Program-made: the position numbers and the translations under genes
In this document: positions 30,060 through 41,612 of the stretch, piece after piece
How positions within the stretch are numbered: the stretch's first letter is position 1
Layout of the letters: each line of letters begins with the position of its first letter
NCBI GenBank assembly: GCA_004524565.1
Contig: SDNZ01000003.1
Coordinates: forward strand, 1 to 62,734
Reading direction: 5' to 3'
DNA: 62,734 nucleotides
DNA from: Candidatus Thorarchaeota archaeon
GTDB lineage: Archaea > Asgardarchaeota > Thorarchaeia > Thorarchaeales > Thorarchaeaceae
Notes under the pieces: generated by a model
Told to the model about the DNA's origin: nothing
Seen by the model: the letters and a program-made list of their open reading frames with translations, nothing else
Databases searched by the model: none

Positions 30060-30218
30060 CTATTTCTGATTATATCGTCAAACTGCTGAATCTTTTATAA
30101 GTTCCGAAGCCCTAATTATTCGTACTCGCCTGCTGAGTAGTGATGAGTCACATCAATCACGTCATACTCAGCACTAAATGTTTGAATCTTCATTGCATTC
30201 TTGGAAGGAGTTGATTTG

Positions 30219-31274
30219 ATGCCCACTAAGTCCACTACAGTAACACAATTTCGTTGTGAGAAATGTAATGCACCTTATCCACTTGGAGCTGACGATGTTA
30301 TTGCTACTTGTCCATATTGTGGCTACACCTTCGTTGTTGGAGGTTCAGAAATCAAACATCTCATCATTCAAAATAAACTGAATCCGAAATCCGTGAAGAC
30401 TGCTGTGACTAAGTGGTTGGCATTGGCATCTTCAAAAAGCGTGGGCGGCGGTGTAATAAAGGATATCACACTGGAAGAACCAACACTTCGGTGGATTCCG
30501 ATATTTCGAGTTACAGGGCAGTTTGAGTCTTACCACTTTGGTGTCAAAAAGGAAGGAAGTGGCGATAATGCCAGACACATCCGAATCGAAGATCGTGACT
30601 CTGGTGAATTTACAGAATGGGTAATTGCTAGGAGACATGCAGCAACTTTTGGAATTGATGAATTTATTCGAACACTGGATGACCGTAAGATCAAGAATTT
30701 TGAGATTGCCCATACTGAAGGTGCACCAGTTCTTAACTCTGAAATAGATGATAGAGACGCAGCAAAACGAGCTCATACCACTAGGATGGATAGAGAACGA
30801 GTCGAATTGCTAGAAAAAATGGATAAATTACTTGACCACAGATTGAATCTGAATCCAGACACAAGTACCTATACTCATGCTCCCTACTGGCTGGTTCGGT
30901 TTACTTATCAAAAAGGAACGTTCCGTGTAGCTGTTTCAGGGGCTACAGGAGAGATACTCTTGGGTGAACTCCCTGTCACGAAGCGATACAGACTTAAAAA
31001 ATGGTTCACCAGTATTTTTCTATTAATCGGTTCTGGGCTGTTGTTTCAAGTTCTTCCCTACATGCTATTAGTCCTCTTTCAAGGTAGTTCGGATAGTGGT
31101 GATATTTGGGCGATTCCTCTGATTATAATAGCTGTAGCAGGATTATTCTGGGTTGCATCAATCATCGTTTTAGGCGGAGCTCTACGGTATGAGGTTGAAG
31201 TAGACACAGAAGGAAAAGAGCGCGGCGATAGATTCAGTATCACTGAGGCAATAAAAAAAGTGGGAGGGAAGTAA
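30219..31274 (+). CDS. Zinc-ribbon membrane protein (paralogue A)
   Basis: CEKC...CPYCG, PYWLVRFTY...VSGATGEILLGELP, 2 C-terminal TM helices; GGAG SD before ATG 30219. Confidence 0.75.
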   Translation: MPTKSTTVTQFRCEKCNAPYPLGADDVIATCPYCGYTFVVGGSEIKHLIIQNKLNPKSVKTAVTKWLALASSKSVGGGVIKDITLEEPTLRWIPIFRVTGQFESYHFGVKKEGSGDNARHIRIEDRDSGEFTEWVIARRHAATFGIDEFIRTLDDRKIKNFEIAHTEGAPVLNSEIDDRDAAKRAHTTRMDRERVELLEKMDKLLDHRLNLNPDTSTYTHAPYWLVRFTYQKGTFRVAVSGATGEILLGELPVTKRYRLKKWFTSIFLLIGSGLLFQVLPYMLLVLFQGSSDSGDIWAIPLIIIAVAGLFWVASIIVLGGALRYEVEVDTEGKERGDRFSITEAIKKVGGK

Positions 31275-31275
31275 G

Positions 31276-32250
31276 TTGACTCAGACTAAATGCCCAAACT
31301 GTGATGGCAAACTTACAATTCCGAAACAGAGTAGCACAGTGGTCTGCGAATATTGCAATACCACAGTCAATGTTAAGACTGGCAAGATTCTCAAAGAGAA
31401 CTATTTCATGAAGCTCCAATACGATTTAGAGATGGCAACAGAGAAGATGTATAGTTGGGGAACAAAACAACTAGGAGCTCCTAAAAGTCTCAACCAATCC
31501 AAGGTTATTGAAAGTAGACTTGTATTCTGGCCTTTCTGGGTAGTTGAAGTAGAAGCAAAGGCAAGTTATACAGGGGTCCAAAAGAAACCCGATTTCAAAG
31601 GTAGTGATAGTCAAAGGACTCTGAAATGGAACAAGATCACTGAAACAGGCAAAATCGATATGGAGAAGGATCTCTTTATTCCGGCGAATCCTGAAACTCC
31701 TTCCCCTCTGAAAAATTATATCATTCCTACAAAACGAAAGGAATACTTCGATAAAGACAAAATTCTCGAAGTACGTGGGACCGCTGAACCAGTTCATGTG
31801 GAGCAAGAAACAGCCATTCAAACAGCAAAGAAAATGATGTCTGAGATATTACGTGAAGAAGCTCTGAAGGAAGTAGATTCGATCACAAGAATGGATGAAA
31901 AACTCAAAACCCCTGCGGTCTTTTTGGTAAGTGTTCCAATCTGGCACATAAAATATTGTTATAAGATTCGAAATTATGAAGCTCTTGTAGATGGGGCCTC
32001 TGGAAGAATAATCCATCTGAAGTTTCCAAGAAAGATGGCTTTCCGAGCAATGACACTGCTGAGTGGACTTATTCATCTTGTAGTTGGCGGTGGAATTGGT
32101 TTGTTACTGGTATATATTGGACTAACAATGTTTGATGGGATATTTCCAACGATATTTGGAATTACTTTCGGATTAGGTATGCTTGCAATAAGCCTACGGT
32201 TCTTTAGAACCGCTTTGTCGTTGAGCGCAGGAATGGAGGAAGCAAGATAG
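31276..32250 (+). CDS. Zinc-ribbon membrane protein (paralogue B)
   Basis: CPNC...CEYC, VPIWHIKY...VDGASGRII..KFP, 2 C-terminal TM helices. Confidence 0.75.
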   Translation: MTQTKCPNCDGKLTIPKQSSTVVCEYCNTTVNVKTGKILKENYFMKLQYDLEMATEKMYSWGTKQLGAPKSLNQSKVIESRLVFWPFWVVEVEAKASYTGVQKKPDFKGSDSQRTLKWNKITETGKIDMEKDLFIPANPETPSPLKNYIIPTKRKEYFDKDKILEVRGTAEPVHVEQETAIQTAKKMMSEILREEALKEVDSITRMDEKLKTPAVFLVSVPIWHIKYCYKIRNYEALVDGASGRIIHLKFPRKMAFRAMTLLSGLIHLVVGGGIGLLLVYIGLTMFDGIFPTIFGITFGLGMLAISLRFFRTALSLSAGMEEAR

Positions 32251-32319: not shown

Positions 32320-32697
32320 GTGCAGTTTGATCTATTTGATCCATTTACTATCTTTGATAGTTTCTTTGGTAGTTTCATGACCATATTCATTATCATTTCT
32401 ATAATCTTCGTGATTGTCTTTGTAGTGATTATATTCACGGTTTGTCGAAGCGGTGCTGGAATAGCAAGAGGAGTTGCCAGAGGATTTACAATGGAGGCAC
32501 CATCATTTGTTATTCCTGATAGACACCGTGGACAAAGGAGATCAGATGGTTCTGAAATGACCACTGTAAGACTTCCGGAGAAATGTCCTTCATGTGGTGC
32601 AGCAATAAGTCAAGAAGGTATAGACTGGACCGGGCCTCTTGAAGCAAAGTGCTCATACTGTGGTGGAAGCTTACGAGCTACGTTTGAACGTGTTTAA
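32320..32697 (+). CDS. Small membrane protein with C-terminal zinc ribbon
   Basis: N-terminal TM helix, CPSCGA...CSYCG. Confidence 0.72.
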   Translation: MQFDLFDPFTIFDSFFGSFMTIFIIISIIFVIVFVVIIFTVCRSGAGIARGVARGFTMEAPSFVIPDRHRGQRRSDGSEMTTVRLPEKCPSCGAAISQEGIDWTGPLEAKCSYCGGSLRATFERV

Positions 32698-32788: not shown

Positions 32789-33154
32789 GTGAGTAAAGTA
32801 TATCACTATCTTGCTAGTAGAGGAACCAGCAAACATTCGTTTGTTGAGGTACCACCTACACGACTCGAGGAAATGCAAATGGCTAATGCGCTAGAAATGC
32901 AGGATGATGGTACTTCTATTGAAGTATGTATCAATAGGAACAATTTATCCTCTGATCGCGTTCTCTGTATTATCGATGACGAGGGAAAGAACGTCTTCCT
33001 CTGGTTAGGAAAAGACGCTCATGTCAGAAAACGTTTTGTCGGTGCCACAACAGCAAGTAAACTTCGTGATGAGCAAGGAACAGGTTTCAGAGTGCGGTCT
33101 CTTGATGAAGGTCATGAACCGGACCAATTCTTTAATTCTCTCGAGCATGAGTGA
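32789..33154 (+). CDS. Single-domain gelsolin/villin-like protein
   Basis: LSSDRVLCII...VFLWLGKDA...RFVG...A..L...RSLDEGHEPDQFF. Start may be ATG 32873. Confidence 0.82.
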   Translation: MSKVYHYLASRGTSKHSFVEVPPTRLEEMQMANALEMQDDGTSIEVCINRNNLSSDRVLCIIDDEGKNVFLWLGKDAHVRKRFVGATTASKLRDEQGTGFRVRSLDEGHEPDQFFNSLEHE

Positions 33155-33219
33155 TAATTTCCGACCCATCCATAACATTCTATAGGTCTATCTCTACAGC
33201 TGATATGAGGTCATAACCA

Positions 33220-34263
33220 TTGCGAGGACTAATGAAGACCACACGAGGGCCAGGCAATCTTGAATTGAAAGAAATTGATGAACCTCGACCTAAGAAAGAT
33301 GAGGTTTTGATTGAGGTCGTTGCAGCGGGAATCTGTGGCACAGATGTCCATATCAAACATGATCAGGCTTTCTATACTCCACCAGTAGTGCTTGGACATG
33401 AATACTCTGGAAAAGTTGTAGAAATTGGACCCGATGTTACCCAGATTGCTATTGGGGATCTTGTTGTATCTCCTGCAACTCAATATTGTGGAAAATGCTA
33501 CCAATGCAAGACAGGTCACATGAATCGTTGTACTGCCGAAGGAAAGAAGATTCTGGGAACCTCCCTAGCTAATGGTGCGTTTGCAAAATATCTCACTGTT
33601 CCTGAATACATCATCCACAAAATTCCTTCAGGTGTGACGATGGAGGAAGCTGCACTAGCTGAACCGACAGCATGTGTTGTGCACTCAGTCATTGACAAAT
33701 CTCCCATAATCCCTGGAGATGTTGTTGTTGTTCAGGGCCCTGGAACAATGGGACTACTTGCTGCTCAAGTAGCAAAGTCTATGGGGGCTGGAAAAGTAAT
33801 CGTTACTGGTGTGACAGCAGACCAGTGGCGCTTTGATATTGCCAAGAAGATTGGTGTAGACATTGCACTTGATGTGCAGGCAGATAACGATCCAGTCAAG
33901 ACAGTAATGGAAGAAAGTGATGGACGAGGAGCTGATGTTGTTATCGAAGCATCTGGAGCCTGTATTGCATGTAGTCAAGCGCTTGAATTTGTGAAAGTAG
34001 CTGGGCATGTGACCCTTCTCGGTATACGCGGGAGACCTCTCGATATTGACCTTGATACTATGGCAGTGAAGGAGCTGACGATGTCAGGTACTTGGGGTAC
34101 ACTTCCCTCTTCTTGGGTAACAACCCTACGTTTAATGGGTTCAAAGAAGATTGATGTTGCGCCTCTCATCACGAATAGAATTTCACTTGCTGAGTGGGAG
34201 AAAGGTTTCGAGTTGATGGAGAGTCAGAAAGCAATCAAAGTCTTATTCACTGAATTTGCATGA
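33220..34263 (+). CDS. Zn-dependent medium-chain dehydrogenase (threonine/sorbitol/butanediol dehydrogenase family)
   Basis: GICGTDVH, GHEYSG, CGKCYQC...C, EPTAC, GPGTMG. Confidence 0.92.
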   Translation: MRGLMKTTRGPGNLELKEIDEPRPKKDEVLIEVVAAGICGTDVHIKHDQAFYTPPVVLGHEYSGKVVEIGPDVTQIAIGDLVVSPATQYCGKCYQCKTGHMNRCTAEGKKILGTSLANGAFAKYLTVPEYIIHKIPSGVTMEEAALAEPTACVVHSVIDKSPIIPGDVVVVQGPGTMGLLAAQVAKSMGAGKVIVTGVTADQWRFDIAKKIGVDIALDVQADNDPVKTVMEESDGRGADVVIEASGACIACSQALEFVKVAGHVTLLGIRGRPLDIDLDTMAVKELTMSGTWGTLPSSWVTTLRLMGSKKIDVAPLITNRISLAEWEKGFELMESQKAIKVLFTEFA

Positions 34264-34265
34264 AA

Positions 34266-34616
34266 TTACTTTCTTGGTGCCCATAATTCTAGGCAGTCCT
34301 GCACAATTGCAATGCTGGATACTGCAGGTCCGCCACCCATTACAATAGCTACTGAACAGGCTTCCATAATTTCTTCTCGTGTAGCACCTAGTGAAATTGC
34401 TTGCTTAGTATGGTAAACCATGCATTCTTCGCAGGGTTTCAGGATACTTGCTACAATGCAGATTATTTCTTTGAATTTGGCGGGTAGAGATCCATCTTTA
34501 TGGACCGTTTTCTGTAAATCCGTATACGCATTTCTTGCATCAGGAATATCTCTGTTCAGTGCACCGAAATGCTTCATGAAACTCTTCAGAATATTTTCAA
34601 CATCGTGAGTCATCAT
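34266..34616 (-). CDS. Carboxymuconolactone decarboxylase/AhpD family protein
   Basis: GSLPAKFKEII, CEECMVYH, GATREEIMEA, MGGGP. Confidence 0.88.
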   Translation of the reverse strand: MMTHDVENILKSFMKHFGALNRDIPDARNAYTDLQKTVHKDGSLPAKFKEIICIVASILKPCEECMVYHTKQAISLGATREEIMEACSVAIVMGGGPAVSSIAIVQDCLELWAPRK

Positions 34617-34629
34617 TGTGTACCTCTAC

Positions 34630-35427
34630 TCAATCATGGGCTAGAGTTCCCATGTTCCATGATGGCTGCGTGTAGAGTGTTTGATATAAAGTCTGTGAAG
34701 TGTCTGCCTCTGCTTTGGTTAGTACTCCTTCTTCAATTGAGGTCCCTGCAAATTCAGTGAAAGTTTCAATAATTGCTTGGAGGATTTCGTCACGTGTAGG
34801 ACAATCTTTCAACTCATGTGCAATGTTTGTAACGATAGCTCTCTTGCTATCCATGCATCTGATCCTCGTTTTATCTCTAAGAAATACAGGTTGTCCTTTA
34901 GGCGGTGTTAGACTCTCCTGAAGAATCTCAAGGTTCGCATCAATGAGCAAGGTTCCATGAATGAAGGAGATTCCTTGTTTTATCCATCCTGCGGTTCCTG
35001 AGATTTTCTTCTTACCAATTTTGATACTTGAGTCAACAGGATCATAATGTGCTGGGATATTGAGGCAGTTCAGGCTTTTTGCAATAGCTCCAATGAAAGT
35101 TTCATAGAGTTCCTTGAGACCTCGAGGTACATAACTGTGAGATTGGTGTAGACGAAGCGCATAGTTCAGATTTCCGAGATCATGAAAGACTGCACCGCCT
35201 CCTGTGAATCTTCGCGCAATCGATATGTCATTGCTCTCACAGAATTCTAAATTGACTTCTTTGTGTACGCACTGGAATCTACCGATTACTACTGCTTTCT
35301 CCGACTCCCAGAATCTTAGAGTATTAAGAGTATTTTCAGATTGCATAAACGTCTTAGCTAATGCTTCATCTATAGCTAGGTTGCGATATACATCAGAACC
35401 CCTATCATTCAGTAATCGCCAAGACAT
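34630..35427 (-). CDS. lplA: Lipoate-protein ligase A (catalytic domain)
   Basis: NLAIDEAL, VVIGRFQ, RRFTGGGAVFHDLGNLN, KKISGTA, HGTLL. Confidence 0.92.
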   Translation of the reverse strand: MSWRLLNDRGSDVYRNLAIDEALAKTFMQSENTLNTLRFWESEKAVVIGRFQCVHKEVNLEFCESNDISIARRFTGGGAVFHDLGNLNYALRLHQSHSYVPRGLKELYETFIGAIAKSLNCLNIPAHYDPVDSSIKIGKKKISGTAGWIKQGISFIHGTLLIDANLEILQESLTPPKGQPVFLRDKTRIRCMDSKRAIVTNIAHELKDCPTRDEILQAIIETFTEFAGTSIEEGVLTKAEADTSQTLYQTLYTQPSWNMGTLAHD

Positions 35428-35697
35428 ATGGGAGAGATATTTTCTGTATCTGATTAATCTGTTGTACTAATTCAAATGTAAAATGAAACCCTTTTGAGCC
35501 GATGGCTAAAAGTAGTTGCTCGCCACCGGCGGGAAGGCCTCAGAGCAACATTGAGGCGGAGCAGATGTCGTATTTCGAGGCTTGACACGTCTAATACGTG
35601 CGAGATGAAGTACTGGTGCTATGATTTAAGGTCCACCTGATTTTCTTTGTCTGAGGGGGGCAGGTCGATATAGTTCTGATTCTCAGAGAAATCGCTC

Positions 35698-36003
35698 TTA
35701 GATGGTGTTTCCGCATTCTTGACAATAGGTGGCTTCTGGACGAACTGTAGTCCCACAATATGGACATATACGTCCTGATTCGCCTTCCGACTTATTTAGG
35801 AATCTACCATATTTTTTGATATTTTCCAGACCTAGTCTATCACTATACAGTTCAGTGTACCCACATTCGGCACATGTTAGAGCTTCCAGAGTAGCAGTTG
35901 AAACTCCTGGAAGATCTATTCTTACATGGTGTTGACCAAAAATTCTATGAGGGCCTGCTATCGATTTACAACCACATTTCGGACATTCGCCTGAGTTGAG
36001 CAT
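35698..36003 (-). CDS. Small double zinc-ribbon protein (paralogue 1)
   Basis: CPKCG...CAECGYTELY...CPYCG...CQECG. Confidence 0.8.
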   Translation of the reverse strand: MLNSGECPKCGCKSIAGPHRIFGQHHVRIDLPGVSTATLEALTCAECGYTELYSDRLGLENIKKYGRFLNKSEGESGRICPYCGTTVRPEATYCQECGNTI

Positions 36004-36025
36004 TGTTTATTCATTGTAGATATGT

Positions 36026-36053
36026 TTCTGAATGCTCATAATGCTTTGCAGAA
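36026..36053 (-). promoter_or_regulatory. Duplicated 28-bp promoter/operator element upstream of zinc-ribbon gene 1
   Basis: ttctgaatgctcataatgctttgcagaa; 26/28 identical to 36414..36441. Confidence 0.6.
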
Positions 36054-36086
36054 TTTGATAATCCCTTTTCTAAAAAGTAAATTAAT

Positions 36087-36392
36087 TCAGATATTTTTTC
36101 CACACTCAGGACAAATCACATCATCAGGTTGAATTCGACAATTGCAGAATAAACAAACACGTTGCCCTGAGGGTTGGGAACTCTTTGATTGTGGCACTTT
36201 GTAGACTTCGCCTAATCGTCTGACATTGTCCAAACCCAACTCATCACTATACCATTCTGCATAACCACATCCAGAACATACGAGTGCTTTCAAAGTAGCT
36301 GTTCTAAAATGTAGAAGGTCAATCAATTTAGATCCGTGTGGACCTACAATCTTTGTGCAACCACATTTAGGACATACTCCAGAGTTTTTCAT
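36087..36392 (-). CDS. Small double zinc-ribbon protein (paralogue 2)
   Basis: CPKCG...CSGCGYAEWY...CLFC...CPECG. Confidence 0.8.
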   Translation of the reverse strand: MKNSGVCPKCGCTKIVGPHGSKLIDLLHFRTATLKALVCSGCGYAEWYSDELGLDNVRRLGEVYKVPQSKSSQPSGQRVCLFCNCRIQPDDVICPECGKNI

Positions 36393-36413
36393 TTTCCCTC
36401 ATGAAGTATTAAC

Positions 36414-36441
36414 TTCTGAAAGCTCATAATACTTTGCAGAA
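36414..36441 (-). promoter_or_regulatory. Imperfect palindrome TTCTG(C)AAAG-N9-CTTT(G)CAGAA containing BRE/TATA-like AAAG-TATTATGA
   Basis: Lies the same distance upstream of its start codon as the 36026 copy (22 vs 23 nt to the element edge). Confidence 0.6.
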
Positions 36442-36443
36442 AT

Positions 36444-36612
36444 TCACATCTTCAGCATGAATGGATTCTCAAGAGTATCCTTTAGAGCAGTAAGAAATTG
36501 TCCTGCTGGGGCACCATCTAACACTCGATGATCCACAGCACATGATGCCATCATCATAGATCGAATCGCAATTGCATCATAGTATTCATGTCCAAGTACT
36601 ACTGGTGGAGTA
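36444..36612 (-). pseudogene. Chimeric remnant: Zn-ADH fragment fused in frame to an E2 C-terminus
   Basis: Reads TPPVVLGHEY-Y-DAIAIRSMMMASCAVDHRVLDGAPAGQFLTALKDTLENPFMLKM*. 30/31 nt match to 33375..33405; 38/44 aa match to the end of 38415..39662; no in-frame ATG upstream. Confidence 0.9.
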
Positions 36613-36860
36613 GTACGTGCAGGTTGATGTATTGTCTGTTGAATTTAAAGCACCCATGATTCTTCGAGCTTATTGGGCTCTTGAATTTATAACTTAGAAT
36701 TTCACTTCAAGATCAAATTTGTCCTAAAATGCTATACAAAGTATTTGACAGGAATTGAGATTGATTGTAGTTTTGTATCATCATCAAAGAAATAGCAAAA
36801 AAAAAGTTTCAGTAGACTATTTAGTAGGTTATTCCATGTTTATTTGTTACAAAAACAAAG

Positions 36861-38405
36861 ATGGGGTTTTGTTGTTTGGTAGTAGAGAAACAGAATTCAT
36901 ACCTTGAGAAACATCCACCCAAACAACTTCCCTATACAACTTCATCAATTTGTCCTGAGTGTCTGTACTCCCTGGAAAAAGTGAATGTCATTGAGGCTTT
37001 TGTCTTCGAAGAAGATGGAAAAATATGGATAAGTAAGAGTTGTGACCGCCATGGCTACTTTAGAGACATCTATTGGTCTGATGCAACCCTCTTTCGAAAA
37101 GTAATGAAGTATTGGTACAGATCTATTCCTTTGCATAATCCGCGGACAGTGAGAAACCGAGGTTGTCCATATGATTGTGGTCCATGTCCTAATCACTTCG
37201 CTCAGACTGCTCTAGGATTAATTGATGTCACGAATCGATGCAATATGCAATGTCCGATTTGTTTTGCATCTGCATCTAACCCTGTCATCTATGAACCAAG
37301 TCCCGAACAGGTGCTTGAAATGTTGAAGAACTTACGAGGAAATCTTCCTGGTCCTACAGCTGCAGTACAATTTGCAGGGGGTGAACCAACCCTAAGTGAG
37401 AACCTGATAGATTACGTAAGATGGTCAAATGAGCTTGGATTTAGGCATATTATGGTAGCGACAAACGGGTTGAGATTTGCTAGAAACCCAGATTTTCTCC
37501 GACAACTAGTTGATGTAGGGTTGAAGACTATCTATTTACAATTTGATGGAGTAACGGAGAAACCCTACTTAGAAATGCGTGGAAAGGACTATCGTGATAT
37601 GAAAGACAAAGTTCTCGATAGTGCAAGATATGCCAATTTGGATGGTGTAATACTTGTTCCTACAGTTGCAAAAGGAGTTAATGATGATCAACTGGGTGAC
37701 ATTATAGATTATGCAATTACTAATCGTGATATTGTGAGATGCATTAATTTCCAACCAGTCAGTATCACAGGTAGGATTGATCAAAATGATCGGGATAATA
37801 TTAGAATAACAATACCAGATGCTATTCACTTGATTGAAAACCAGACTAAGGGAGGTGTCAAGGTATCAGATTGGTATCCTGTTTCGTCTATGAATAGTGT
37901 TGGACGGGCTTTGGGACTCTTACGGGGAGAGCACTTTTTCGAGTTGCATTCTCACTTTGCTTGCGGAATGGCTACGTTTCTCTTCATCAATGATGATGGA
38001 AGTTATGTTCCGATAACAGATGTCATTGATCTCGACAATCTTCTCGAAACACTGGAAGATATTTGCAATCTATACGCGGATAAGAAGACTCTTGCAGGAT
38101 TGCGTTCCAAATTGAAACTCATTGGATTAATTCGGAAAATAAAACGGAAGAGCTTCATGAAACCCCTCATCTCTTCGTTTCTAAAGAAAGGCAGCTATAG
38201 TTCATTACGGGCATTCATGAACAAGGTGTTAATGTTAGGGATGATGCACTTCCAAGATGCTTGGAATATGGACCTGGAAAGAGCACAACATTGTACGATT
38301 AACTATGCTACCCCTGATGGAAGAATTATTTCCTTCTGCACCTATAACAACATTCACCGAAAAACAGTAGAAGAGCGTTTTTCTACTTCACAACTGAATG
38401 AATAA
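36861..38405 (+). CDS. tes: Radical SAM enzyme of the tetraether lipid synthase (Tes/GDGT-MAS, MJ0619) family
   Basis: CPEC...CDRHG rubredoxin-like site, GCPYDCGPC, DVTNRCNMQCPICF, H..CG...C.I.Y.TPDGRIISFCTYN. Confidence 0.8.
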   Translation: MGFCCLVVEKQNSYLEKHPPKQLPYTTSSICPECLYSLEKVNVIEAFVFEEDGKIWISKSCDRHGYFRDIYWSDATLFRKVMKYWYRSIPLHNPRTVRNRGCPYDCGPCPNHFAQTALGLIDVTNRCNMQCPICFASASNPVIYEPSPEQVLEMLKNLRGNLPGPTAAVQFAGGEPTLSENLIDYVRWSNELGFRHIMVATNGLRFARNPDFLRQLVDVGLKTIYLQFDGVTEKPYLEMRGKDYRDMKDKVLDSARYANLDGVILVPTVAKGVNDDQLGDIIDYAITNRDIVRCINFQPVSITGRIDQNDRDNIRITIPDAIHLIENQTKGGVKVSDWYPVSSMNSVGRALGLLRGEHFFELHSHFACGMATFLFINDDGSYVPITDVIDLDNLLETLEDICNLYADKKTLAGLRSKLKLIGLIRKIKRKSFMKPLISSFLKKGSYSSLRAFMNKVLMLGMMHFQDAWNMDLERAQHCTINYATPDGRIISFCTYNNIHRKTVEERFSTSQLNE

Positions 38406-38414
38406 TCAAAAATC

Positions 38415-39662
38415 CTACATCTTCATCATGAAGGGACTTTCTAGGGTATCTTTCAGAGCTGCAAGAAATTGACCTGCTGGGGCACCATCGAGAATACGAT
38501 GATCCACAGCACAAGAAGCCATCATCATTGATCGAATAGTGATCTCGTCATTAACAACTACTGGTTGCTTCTTTATTTGTCCTAGTGCCAGGATAGCAGT
38601 TTCGGGAGGATTGATGACAGGTATAAAGAGATCAACTTTGAATGGTCCTAGATTGGATACAGTGAATGTGCTTCCAGTTAGCTCTTCAGGAGTAAGTTTG
38701 TTCTCCTTTGCTCTACTTCCCTTTTCCTTTGTTTCAACAGCAATCTCTGTAATTGATTTCTTGTTAGCATGTGGAACTGTAACAACAATGAGACCATCAT
38801 CTGTTGCCATTGCTACGCCAATGTTTACTTCGTCGAAGATGTGAAGGTCTGTGCCTGCAAGAGCAGCGTTGAATTTCGGAAATCTCTCCAACGTATCAGC
38901 AACAGCTTTCACTATGATATCATTGAATGAAACTCGAATACCATGGACCTTCTCAACTTTGAGATTGATTTCCTTCCTTAGAGCAACTACTTCAGTCATA
39001 TCAATTTCAGTAATCATGGTGATATGTGGATTCTGAGCACTCTGAGTCATTCGTCGAGCAATAGTTCTTCTTAATGGAGTCATACGTTCAACCTTGCTGA
39101 CCTTTCTCTCGTCAGAGATTGAAACTTGTGGGGTTGAATCCTTTCCAGCAATAACATCTTTCTCGACAATTCTTCCTTCCGGACCAGTTCCAACAATCAA
39201 TGATAGATCAATACCAAGTTCCTGAGCTTTCTTTTTCGCTCGCGGTGATGCTTTGATTTTTCCACCAGGTAATCTAGTTTCACTACTTGGCGTACTTACT
39301 TTGGAAGTAAATGGTGCTGATATTTCAGGTGTGGTAATTGGTGTTGTTGCTGGAGTAGGTGCTGTTGGACTTGCAGCATTCAACTTCCTTGGTTTCACAT
39401 CAGGGATTTCCTCGCCTTCTTTACCAATGAACGCAATAGGCTCGCTGATGGGAATTTCATCATTGACTTCACAGAGAATCTTCAGGATAACTCCATCATC
39501 TGGAGCTTCGAGTTCGAACTCATTCTTCTCACCGAATATCTCCACAACGAGGTCTCCTTTCTTGACTTTGTCACCTTCCTTCTTGAGCCATTTGAGAATG
39601 ACACCGTATTCCATTGCAACACTCATGCGCTGCATGATCATGGTTGTGACCATAATTATCAC
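38415..39662 (-). CDS. 2-oxoacid/acetoin dehydrogenase E2 (dihydrolipoamide acyltransferase)
   Basis: Lipoyl domain, Ala/Pro/Thr linker, ASPRAKKKA E3-binding domain, DHRILDG. Confidence 0.93.
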   Translation of the reverse strand: MIIMVTTMIMQRMSVAMEYGVILKWLKKEGDKVKKGDLVVEIFGEKNEFELEAPDDGVILKILCEVNDEIPISEPIAFIGKEGEEIPDVKPRKLNAASPTAPTPATTPITTPEISAPFTSKVSTPSSETRLPGGKIKASPRAKKKAQELGIDLSLIVGTGPEGRIVEKDVIAGKDSTPQVSISDERKVSKVERMTPLRRTIARRMTQSAQNPHITMITEIDMTEVVALRKEINLKVEKVHGIRVSFNDIIVKAVADTLERFPKFNAALAGTDLHIFDEVNIGVAMATDDGLIVVTVPHANKKSITEIAVETKEKGSRAKENKLTPEELTGSTFTVSNLGPFKVDLFIPVINPPETAILALGQIKKQPVVVNDEITIRSMMMASCAVDHRILDGAPAGQFLAALKDTLESPFMMKM

Positions 39663-40637
39663 CTATACAATATCTCGAACAGCTTGTGCAATTCTCTTGT
39701 TATCAGGGATGAAGTAGTTCTCCAATGGTGGGCTAAATGGCACAGGAGTATCTGGTGCGTTCACTCTCTTGATTGGCGCATCCAACCAGTCAAAGGCTTC
39801 TTCCTGAACAATTGCTGCAATCTCTGCAGTTGTTGCTCCAGTCTTAGTTTCTTCTGTGACAAGTACCAATCTACCGGTCTTCTTAACTGACTCGATGAGA
39901 GTCTTTTTATCTAGAGGGACTAATGTTCGGGGATCTATCACTTCAACGCTGATTCCTTCTTTCTGAAGTTCTTCGGCAACCTCAAGAGCTTTATGCAGCA
40001 TGATGAATGTGCCCCAAATTGTGACATCTGCACCTTCACGTCGCACTTTTGCTTCCCCAAAGGGAATGAGGTACTCATCATCTGGTACTTCCTCTTTCTT
40101 GTCATAGACTAGTTTGTGTTCAGCAAAGAGTACGGGGTCGGGGTCTCTAATTGCAGTCTTGATTAATCCTTTCACATCTGAAGCAAAGGCTGGTACTGCA
40201 ACCTTGAGACCCGGTGTATGCATGAACCATGATTCCAAGCTTTGTGAGTGATGTGAAGCGATATTCTTTCCACCACCAAAAACGGTTCTCAAAACTAGTG
40301 GGACTGATGTCTGTCCTCCGAACATGTACCTCATCTTTGCTGCTTGATTACACACTTGGTCCATTGCTAGGGTAATGAGATCTCCAAACATAATTTCTGC
40401 AACTGGTCTCATACCAGTAATAGCTGCACCAACTGCCGCTCCTGCGATTGTATTCTCTGAGATTGGTGTGTCTCGAACTCGTTCTACTCCGAACTCTTCC
40501 GCTAGACCTTTAGTCACCTTGAAGGCTCCGCCCCAATTAAGACCGATATCTTCTCCGAGAAGGAATACACGTTCATCACGGAGCATCTCTTCGCGAATCC
40601 CTGCTTTGAGAGCTTCTCTGTATACCATCTCTGTCAT
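39663..40637 (-). CDS. 2-oxoacid/acetoin dehydrogenase E1 beta
   Basis: LLGEDIG, RVRDTPISE, RPVAEIMF, HHSQS, DPVLFAEHK. Confidence 0.94.
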   Translation of the reverse strand: MTEMVYREALKAGIREEMLRDERVFLLGEDIGLNWGGAFKVTKGLAEEFGVERVRDTPISENTIAGAAVGAAITGMRPVAEIMFGDLITLAMDQVCNQAAKMRYMFGGQTSVPLVLRTVFGGGKNIASHHSQSLESWFMHTPGLKVAVPAFASDVKGLIKTAIRDPDPVLFAEHKLVYDKKEEVPDDEYLIPFGEAKVRREGADVTIWGTFIMLHKALEVAEELQKEGISVEVIDPRTLVPLDKKTLIESVKKTGRLVLVTEETKTGATTAEIAAIVQEEAFDWLDAPIKRVNAPDTPVPFSPPLENYFIPDNKRIAQAVRDIV

Positions 40638-41612
40638 CTAGAACGCCTCCGCATAGACATCATCCAGAGTTTCTTCGGGTTCTGGAAAGTCAGATTTCTT
40701 TGCGAATTCTCCTGCCTTGTCTACTTCTTTCTGTAGTTTTTCACGTATCTTTTCAGCGTCCTTTTCAGTGATTGCACCTTGTTCGATAGCAATCTTTTGA
40801 ATAACATTTACCGCATCTTTCTCACCACTGAGCCAATGATCTGCTTCTTCTTGTGGTCGGTATTTTGCTGGATCAAATCTAGAGTGTCCTTTCATTCTGT
40901 ATGTTTGACATTCAATGAGTGTTGGACCTCCACCTTCTCGAGCTCGCTTGACAGCTTCAACTGTTGCTTCATAAACTTCGAGAGCATTATTACCATCAAC
41001 GACTTGACTTGGAATACAATAACCCTCAGCTCTCTGGGCAACCGTTGAACTTGGACAAGTGAGTTTGATAGGTGTTCCCATCGCATAGAAATTGTTCTCA
41101 ACAATCCAGACTAAAGGCAACTTCCAGATGGCTGACATGTTCAATGATTCACCAAAAGTTCCATTGTTTGAAGCTCCATCTCCGAAGAAACATACCACTA
41201 CGTCGTCAGTCTTTCTCATTTGACATGATAGTGCGGCACCGACTGCTATTGGTAGACCTGATGCTACAACACCTGTTGCTCCCAATACCCCCACATCAAA
41301 CTGCGTGATGTGCATTGATCCGCCCTTACCCTTACATGAACCTGTCTTCTTGCCCAGTAATTCAGCTAAGGCGGCGTTCATATCCGCACCTTTTGCTACA
41401 ACATGCCCGTGTCCTCTATGAGAGCTCTGAATCCAGTCAGAATCCTTGAGTGCTGTTGTTACTCCTGCTGCCACTCCTTCCTGTCCTAGATACAGATGTA
41501 GTGTCCCAGGAACTATATTTTCTCCGAATAAATCCCAGACCTTCTCTTCAAAGAGTCTTGTCTTCAGAGTTCTTGTGAATAACTCCTTGAGGATCTTCTT
41601 GTCAACTGTCAT
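40638..41612 (-). CDS. 2-oxoacid/acetoin dehydrogenase E1 alpha (TPP-dependent, AcoA/PdhA-like)
   Basis: HLYLGQE, HRGHGH, GKGGSMH, GDGASN...ENN, TYRMKGHS. Confidence 0.94.
   Translation of the reverse strand: MTVDKKILKELFTRTLKTRLFEEKVWDLFGENIVPGTLHLYLGQEGVAAGVTTALKDSDWIQSSHRGHGHVVAKGADMNAALAELLGKKTGSCKGKGGSMHITQFDVGVLGATGVVASGLPIAVGAALSCQMRKTDDVVVCFFGDGASNNGTFGESLNMSAIWKLPLVWIVENNFYAMGTPIKLTCPSSTVAQRAEGYCIPSQVVDGNNALEVYEATVEAVKRAREGGGPTLIECQTYRMKGHSRFDPAKYRPQEEADHWLSGEKDAVNVIQKIAIEQGAITEKDAEKIREKLQKEVDKAGEFAKKSDFPEPEETLDDVYAEAF

Follow-up and report, generated by a model that had tools for sequence, protein, structure and literature searches.

A truncated E2 gene end with an ADH-derived filler in a Thorarchaeota lipoylation locus: probable illegitimate junction between two diverged versions of the locus

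Introduction

Homology-facilitated illegitimate recombination (HFIR) leaves displaced 'orphan' 3' pieces of genes beside incoming modules (PMC5361080). The process is known from transformable bacteria and from E. coli conjugation (PMC3240628); the HFIR experiments are those of de Vries & Wackernagel 2002, Prudhomme et al. 2002 and Meier & Wackernagel 2003, as they are cited in PMC5361080. Orphan 3' fragments and immunity arrays of Rhs, CDI and T6SS systems (PMC5361080) share this layout: an incoming homologous module takes the functional position, and downstream of it the gene that it displaced survives as a 3' end without a promoter, with one homologous anchor and one illegitimate join being the proposed origin.

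The feature described here, termed the scar, has the same arrangement and the same proposed pair of joins. It differs from the Rhs, CDI and T6SS arrays in that the gene is a housekeeping-type archaeal E2 acyltransferase rather than a polymorphic toxin, in that there is a single orphan with a templated filler at its junction, and in that retention by selection is not evidenced. With bacterial HFIR it has in common diverged or foreign DNA with homology at one end, an illegitimate join near the edge of the anchor and small duplications or deletions. The bacterial cases were shown experimentally, whereas the present one is read from a natural scar in an Asgard archaeon.

End-joined breaks that carry templated insertions have been described for synthesis-dependent MMEJ (PMC2943611) and for the 'templated extension in cis/trans' of Pol theta (PMC4912351). 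Such insertions resemble the insert in the scar in being short inverted copies of nearby sequence on the same molecule, and differ from it in the distance to the template, which is 3.2 kb here and tens of nucleotides there. Junction inserts copied from nearby sequence are also produced by replication template switching (FoSTeS/MMBIR). To our knowledge, Archaea are without Pol theta.

Acetoin/2-oxoacid dehydrogenase (aco-type E1-E2) clusters are linked to 2,3-butanediol-type Zn-dehydrogenases. The locus that carries the scar is similar in its neighbourhood of E1alpha-E1beta-E2, LplA and a Zn-ADH, which is conserved across the genus. Unlike the aco-type clusters it has a convergent ADH that is not co-transcribed with E1/E2, and an E3 gene is absent from the cluster.

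Materials and methods

The window, meaning the whole stretch of DNA that was analysed, comprises 62,734 nucleotides of contig SDNZ01000003.1 of a Candidatus Thorarchaeota archaeon (GCA_004524565.1). The source genome is a MAG of 218 contigs with 86% completeness and 4% contamination. The region was compared by BLASTN with the window and with the whole assembly (3.13 Mb, 218 contigs). Sixteen stretches of the same genus were fetched, 13 of which carry the operon itself; L063-L065 are metagenome loci. The search for a donor covered the C-termini of 120 E2 homologs and, of the seven loci that matched best, the sequences of three.

Gene order at the locus

The features around the scar are as follows, with the basis of each assignment in brackets.

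33220..34263, plus strand: Zn-ADH gene, with the filler template at 33375..33406 (Pfam)
34266..34616, minus strand: CMD/AhpD-like gene (Pfam)
34630..35427, minus strand: LplA gene (Pfam)
35440..35650, minus strand: complete conserved structured leader with promoter-like flank, upstream of lplA (comparison with relatives)
35698..36003, minus strand: zinc-ribbon gene ZnR_a (Pfam)
36087..36392, minus strand: zinc-ribbon gene ZnR_b, in tandem with ZnR_a (Pfam)
36393..36443, minus strand: 51-nt E2-ZnR spacer or ZnR leader, homologous to that of relatives lacking the radical-SAM gene and of the same length (alignment)
36444..36580, minus strand: orphaned E2 3' end (E2' tail), 44 codons and a TGA stop, DAIAIRSMMMASCAVDHRVLDGAPAGQFLTALKDTLENPFMLKM (BLASTN and homolog comparison)
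36581..36612, minus strand: 32-nt Zn-ADH piece (codons TPPVVLGHEY), inverted relative to the ADH gene and read as templated filler (BLASTN)
36613..36665, minus strand: truncated, diverged second copy of the promoter-like flank and hairpin start of the lplA leader, similar to L060 (alignment with relatives)
36666..36860, plus strand: spacer S, the upstream region of the radical-SAM gene, common only to L060 (69-73% nucleotide identity to L060:150-325)
36861..38405, plus strand: Tes-like radical-SAM gene (Zn_ribbon_HMPTM and Radical_SAM), a cargo found in some locus variants only (Pfam)
38415..39662, minus strand: intact E2 gene (Pfam)
39663..40637, minus strand: intact E1beta gene (Pfam)
40638..41612, minus strand: intact E1alpha gene, in an operon with E1beta and E2 (Pfam)

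The gene order E1alpha-E1beta-E2-(ZnR)-leader-LplA-CMD with a convergent ADH was present in all 16 fetched same-genus stretches and in L063-L065. Across 24 same-genus genomes and 9 further E2-bearing loci the ADH gene was always convergent and at the far end. In this same set neither a second E1/E2 operon nor a co-oriented ADH-E1-E2 arrangement was found; an intact ADH-E1alpha-E1beta-E2 operon, for which the original prediction had proposed a search among relatives, was thus missing from all of them.

The radical-SAM gene of the window encodes a distinct Tes-like paralog, 55-59% identical to the regular Tes (tetraether lipid synthase) of the genus, which lies elsewhere in those genomes; a copy of regular Tes was not found in this assembly (86% complete). 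Close homologs of the paralog (71-87% identity) occupy the same place, from E2 to ZnR/leader, in L058, L059, L060 and L061. The spacer between ZnR and the radical-SAM gene is only ~140 nt in L058 and L059. A further close homolog, the L062 ortholog, is embedded in a carotenoid-type cluster that also contains a phytoene/squalene synthase, two desaturases, UbiA and Caroten_synth. The scar itself was absent from all relatives, including the five that bear the radical-SAM gene (L058, L059, L060, L061 and L062).

The spot between E2 and the lplA leader was found to be a hotspot for cargo (L038:6835-13583, L041:6138-12047, L059:5222-7549, L062:486-13085, L064:8244-8645). Inserts vary by relative and comprise 6-7 kb of unrelated genes, FixC/FixX-like genes, a carotenoid-type cluster and a 133-aa ORF. 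Copies of ZnR at this spot number 0, 1 or 2 depending on the relative. In the window, ZnR_b and ZnR_a share a duplicated 31-nt leader (36414-36444 and 36026-36056, 28/31 nt identical) and encode strongly diverged proteins, ZnR_a being 73% and ZnR_b only 46% identical to the ZnR proteins of relatives.

A separate difference between loci was seen on the other side of the ADH gene. L058:1965-4097 encodes a 710-aa protein with a Cas12f1-like/TnpB domain, upstream of homologs of 32320-32697 and 32789-33154, the hypothetical genes that precede ADH in the window. The position matching the Cas12f1-like gene is taken in the window by two Zn-ribbon membrane proteins (30201..32250).

Structure of the scar

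The scar at 36444..36612 is a 167-nt feature on the minus strand, made up of the ADH piece (36612..36581) and the E2' tail (36580..36444) joined in frame. Homology of the E2 part to relatives starts at 36580, so that the two pieces abut directly. On the minus strand the scar is translated as one open frame, TTPPVVLGHEY up to the junction and YDAIAIRSMMMASCAVDHRVLDGAPAGQFLTALKDTLENPFMLKM from there to the stop. The enclosing stop-to-stop frame (36444..36644, minus strand) has 66 codons and reads IQQTIHQPARTTPPVVLGHEYYDAIAIRSMMMASCAVDHRVLDGAPAGQFLTALKDTLENPFMLKM. Its start candidates are confined to an internal MMM, which is why the frame is missed by ORF lists, as had been stated from the outset. 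A small ORF overlapping the scar, MGALNSTDNTSTCTYYSTSSTWT (36586..36657, minus strand), was weighed as a possible feature and rejected, since L060 has a shorter form of it and since its ATG precedes the promoter-like TATA.

For the ADH piece, BLASTN against the whole assembly placed 36612..36578 on 33375..33409 of the oppositely oriented ADH gene, with 33/35 nt identical (E=1.4e-8). In the core, 31/32 nt agree with 33375..33406 (plus strand), 3.2 kb away, and the one difference is synonymous (GTA/GTG). The insert is an inverted near-exact copy of an ADH stretch on the same molecule and is unique in the 3.13-Mb assembly. At the corresponding positions the ADH genes of congeners differ from it at 2-10 of 30, against 1 of 32 for the resident ADH. 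To judge from this comparison, the piece was copied from the physically linked ADH gene. The first description of the feature, an ADH fragment from the opposite strand ~3 kb away joined directly and in frame to 44 E2 codons, thus stands.

The E2' tail was recognised by BLASTN, in which 36566..36446 matched the intact E2 3' end at 38537..38417 (102/121 nt, E=3e-32). Over its whole length it agrees with the intact E2 at 38/44 amino acids and 107/132 nucleotides, and its stop is at the homologous position. Beyond the stop, homology to L065 extends for a further 30 nt into the spacer. The tail lies 51 nt upstream of ZnR, exactly where the E2 3' end sits in loci without the radical-SAM gene. The assembly contains one full E2 and the scar fragment; no other E2 copy and no further E2 or ADH fragment of the scar type was found in its 3.13 Mb.

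The differences from the resident E2 (25/132 nt) were 17.5 synonymous (Sd) and 7.5 non-synonymous (Nd), with a dS of ~1.2 and a dN/dS of 0.07. Against the E2 of L058 there were 20 differences and a dN/dS of 0.03, and against any E2 compared the dS was ~1 and the dN/dS 0.03-0.10. Under neutral decay of one copy after a duplication, about two thirds of the differences would be expected to be non-synonymous, and the binomial probability of at most 7-8 in 25 is ~1e-4 to 5e-4. Columns that are invariant in 120 E2 homologs are all kept in the tail, including the catalytic DHRxLDG motif, encoded in the scar as AVDHRVLDGAPAGQFL... and the conserved C-terminal helix is kept as well. Only two bases of the tail are seen in no other E2; both are non-synonymous changes at conserved sites (A to T and M to L) and put the decay after truncation at ~1.5%.

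On these comparisons the E2' tail diverged under purifying selection. The low dN/dS, the retained invariant residues and the restriction of private changes to two identify a different E2 allele, species-level diverged and functional until recently, as its source. The original prediction had likewise proposed a second functional allele from the excess of synonymous differences, and the Ks calculation that it called for bears this out. The donor lineage was not found among the 120 E2 homologs and the fetched loci, the best nucleotide identity being 85% (L058).

As an E2 gene (PF00198) the scar lacks the complete catalytic domain (~230 aa), the lipoyl and E3-binding domains and a start codon. As a Zn-ADH (PF08240/PF00107) it lacks the GroES-like and Rossmann domains; 32 nt are present and the flanks are not ADH. 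The E2 part is a pseudogene fragment, because it has 44 codons only and no start upstream of the internal MMM. The scar is a young pseudogene piece with ~1.5-3% neutral change. Both the ADH piece and the E2' tail became neutral recently, at about the same time, and their in-frame fusion is incidental.

An independent assembly of the region was located by an exact-protein look-up of ZnR_b. The Logan contig of run SRR7615342, which may share its sample with the MAG, was 100% identical to 33087..36772 of the window over 3686 nt and crosses both junctions. The junction was also searched with exact and codon-degenerate patterns in metagenome and genome contig collections, which may omit the window's own genome, and was not found there. 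No contig with an alternative haplotype was found in the assembly.

The lplA leader and its second flank copy

Directly upstream of lplA lies a GC-rich non-coding element of ~170 nt, the leader, which was found once per genome in 23/23 related loci. Its nucleotide identity among relatives is 80-96%, while the synonymous sites of neighbouring genes are saturated. Three hairpins show compensatory changes (GCCTC/GAGGC to GTCTC/GAGAC to GCCCC/GGGGC). The element further has an invariant loop-loop complementarity (GTTGCTC/GAGCAAC), an invariant CGACATCTGCTC and a CAGATTAATCAG-type motif near the lplA start. Its first hairpin, GCACGTATTAGACGTGTC, is preceded at ~24 nt by a promoter-like TTAAAT. Searches of 35300..36900 for tRNAs and Rfam families returned no match, and the leader matched neither Rfam 15 nor a tRNA. 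The element is thus a candidate for a new RNA of the lipoylation genes, either a cis-regulatory leader or riboswitch-like, and it may be a more interesting object of this stretch than the scar.

The first hairpin contains the GCACGTA that is repeated at 36614..36620, next to the scar. This repeat belongs to a truncated second copy of the flank (36613..36665), in which a promoter-like TTTAAAT (36642..36648) precedes GCACGTA by ~22 nt and the first hairpin breaks off after these first 7-10 nt. Flank copies 1 and 2 are ~35% diverged from one another. Copy 2 is closest to L060, where this sequence runs uninterrupted into a complete leader element, and copy 1 resembles L058/L063.

Recombination signals

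In the trio of window, L060 and L058, a breakpoint was found near 37858 within the radical-SAM gene (maximum chi-square 59, 0/2000 permutations). Informative sites favoured L060 by 124:66 on its left and L058 by 225 to 98 on its right. The significant breakpoint indicates homologous exchange among these lineages at the locus; it lies 1.25 kb from the scar and may reflect the history of L060 rather than that of this genome (rate differences, outgroup). On the left side of the scar no clear breakpoint was found by sliding identity. Concatenated trees of the left genes (ADH, CMD and LplA) and the right genes (E1alpha, E1beta and E2) were broadly congruent.

Microhomology at the two junctions is weak, amounting to 0-2 nt between the ADH piece and the E2' tail and to at most GTA or AGTA between leader and ADH piece, depending on the parental sequence. 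The two blocks that abut at the scar differ in lineage affinity, and each duplicates part of the other's locus, as would fit an HFIR-type integration scar.

Discussion

The scar is real, and recombination between two versions of the locus is its probable origin; the reading as the residue of a second, lost operon fails. The explanation that we favour, with a probability of about 0.6, is an illegitimate junction of two diverged versions formed by HFIR, with a 32-nt filler templated by ADH. One version, here B', would be that of L060, with E1alpha-E1beta-E2 followed by the convergent Tes-like radical-SAM gene and then by the lplA promoter and leader. The other, version A, would be that of most congeners, E1alpha-E1beta-E2-ZnR-promoter/leader-lplA. 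Read along its minus strand, the window would then follow B' (E1alpha-E1beta-E2, radical-SAM gene, spacer S and flank copy 2) to a point 7-10 nt into the leader hairpin (36613). After this would come the 32-nt filler and then version A from codon 371 of E2', with ZnR_b, ZnR_a, flank copy 1, leader, lplA, CMD and ADH. With the window composed of B', filler and A, each version contributes its own copy of the segment that runs from E2 codon 371 to the leader hairpin, and the divergence between these copies is that seen between species of the genus.

Most likely, DNA of a congener integrated by a homologous crossover on one side and by end-joining on the other. The incoming DNA would have been either version A, arriving in a B' genome, or B' with its radical-SAM gene, arriving in an A genome whose own E2 it displaced. 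L060 may represent the parent, or else may have been derived by deletion between the two GCACGTA copies. For the filler, a resected 3' end in E2' may have been extended by ~32 nt on the ADH gene, 3.2 kb away on the same single strand, giving a snap-back or template-switch 'templated insertion'. A template on the same single strand would account for the filler being inverted as well as for its close match to the resident ADH. In classical snap-back, template and break are tens of nucleotides apart, unlike the 3.2 kb here, and we know of no such repair pathway shown in Asgard archaea. As a possible side effect, the duplicated leader promoter might transcribe through the scar into ZnR_b and ZnR_a.

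It is rather unlikely that the arrangement is instead an intragenomic tandem duplication made by one template switch (FoSTeS/MMBIR type) from E2 codon 371 to the leader hairpin. The ADH 32-mer would then be the product of the switch; the functional copy (E2 tail, radical-SAM side) would later have been overwritten by recombination with a congener, and the radical-SAM gene and ZnR lost differentially. In formal terms the locus is a tandem duplication whose junction is templated, the filler does match the resident ADH, and homologous exchange with congeners is demonstrated at the locus. Set against this, the scheme needs a precise loss of the radical-SAM gene that restored the 51-nt E2-ZnR spacer of relatives without it, as well as a loss of ZnR from the other copy, and the flank copies are ~35% diverged, the second being specifically L060-like.

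Retention of the fragment for a function concerns the consequence of the junction rather than its origin, and is compatible with the HFIR explanation. The fragment might serve as a 5' UTR or promoter module for ZnR_b/ZnR_a, a role suggested by the TTTAAAT 22 nt upstream of GCACGTA, which copies the leader promoter, or might encode a 38-aa peptide from the internal MMM in the frame that is still open. We consider either distinctly unlikely. An open frame is expected when a fragment has decayed by only ~2%, the two private changes strike conserved residues and suggest relaxed constraint, and all relatives, with or without the radical-SAM gene, manage without the scar.

The original prediction had taken the scar as what remained of a second, co-oriented ADH-E1alpha-E1beta-E2 operon, collapsed by one deletion from ADH codon 64 to E2 codon 371. 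The in-frame fusion and the once-functional allele behind the E2 part speak for such an operon, although an in-frame join has a 1-in-3 chance of arising anyway. That origin now seems very improbable. Only 32 nt of ADH are present, and upstream of them lies not ADH 5' sequence but the leader-promoter fragment (36613..36665). Identity to the resident genes is 97% (31/32) for the ADH part and 81% for the E2 part (19% diverged, dS ~1), so that the two do not have one shared diverged history. The survey of 24 congeners and 9 further E2-bearing loci yielded no second operon or co-oriented ADH, and the position of the E2' tail, 51 nt upstream of ZnR, is that of the E2 3' end in loci without the radical-SAM gene.

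An artefact, either a contig chimeric between two co-occurring strains or chimeric amplification products, can hardly be the answer for all that the MAG has 218 contigs and 4% contamination, that the two halves resemble different lineages and that the junction was not found in other contig collections: a graph mis-join needs shared k-mers, and here overlap with the partner sequences is 0-4 nt at most at each of two junctions separated by 32 nt, so that junction-spanning k-mers must exist in the reads, while the Logan assembly is identical across both junctions and the assembly holds no alternative haplotype contig.

The scar is a fresh example of a known phenomenon, a recombination scar or orphaned 3' gene end with a templated filler. 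On its own it is a small pseudogene fragment whose value is forensic. Tentatively, and with well under even confidence in the whole, it might be regarded as a natural, datable footprint of DNA integration between species in an Asgard archaeon. Such a footprint would combine an HFIR-like event with a kilobase-range templated insertion at a cargo-swap hotspot (Tes-like radical-SAM, carotenoid-type and FixC/X-like genes), with the leader promoter duplicated and the ZnR genes possibly driven through the scar.

The analysis corrects the tempting inference of a lost second operon. Nor does the scar supply the independent link of ADH to E1/E2 that had been claimed for it: the association rests on conserved synteny, to which the scar adds physical proximity only. 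The scar indicates that congeneric Thorarchaeota exchange pieces of the E1/E2-lipoylation locus by recombination, with a cargo hotspot lying between E2 and the lplA leader, and it would mean that break repair in these archaea can leave templated insertions like those of bacteria and eukaryotes.
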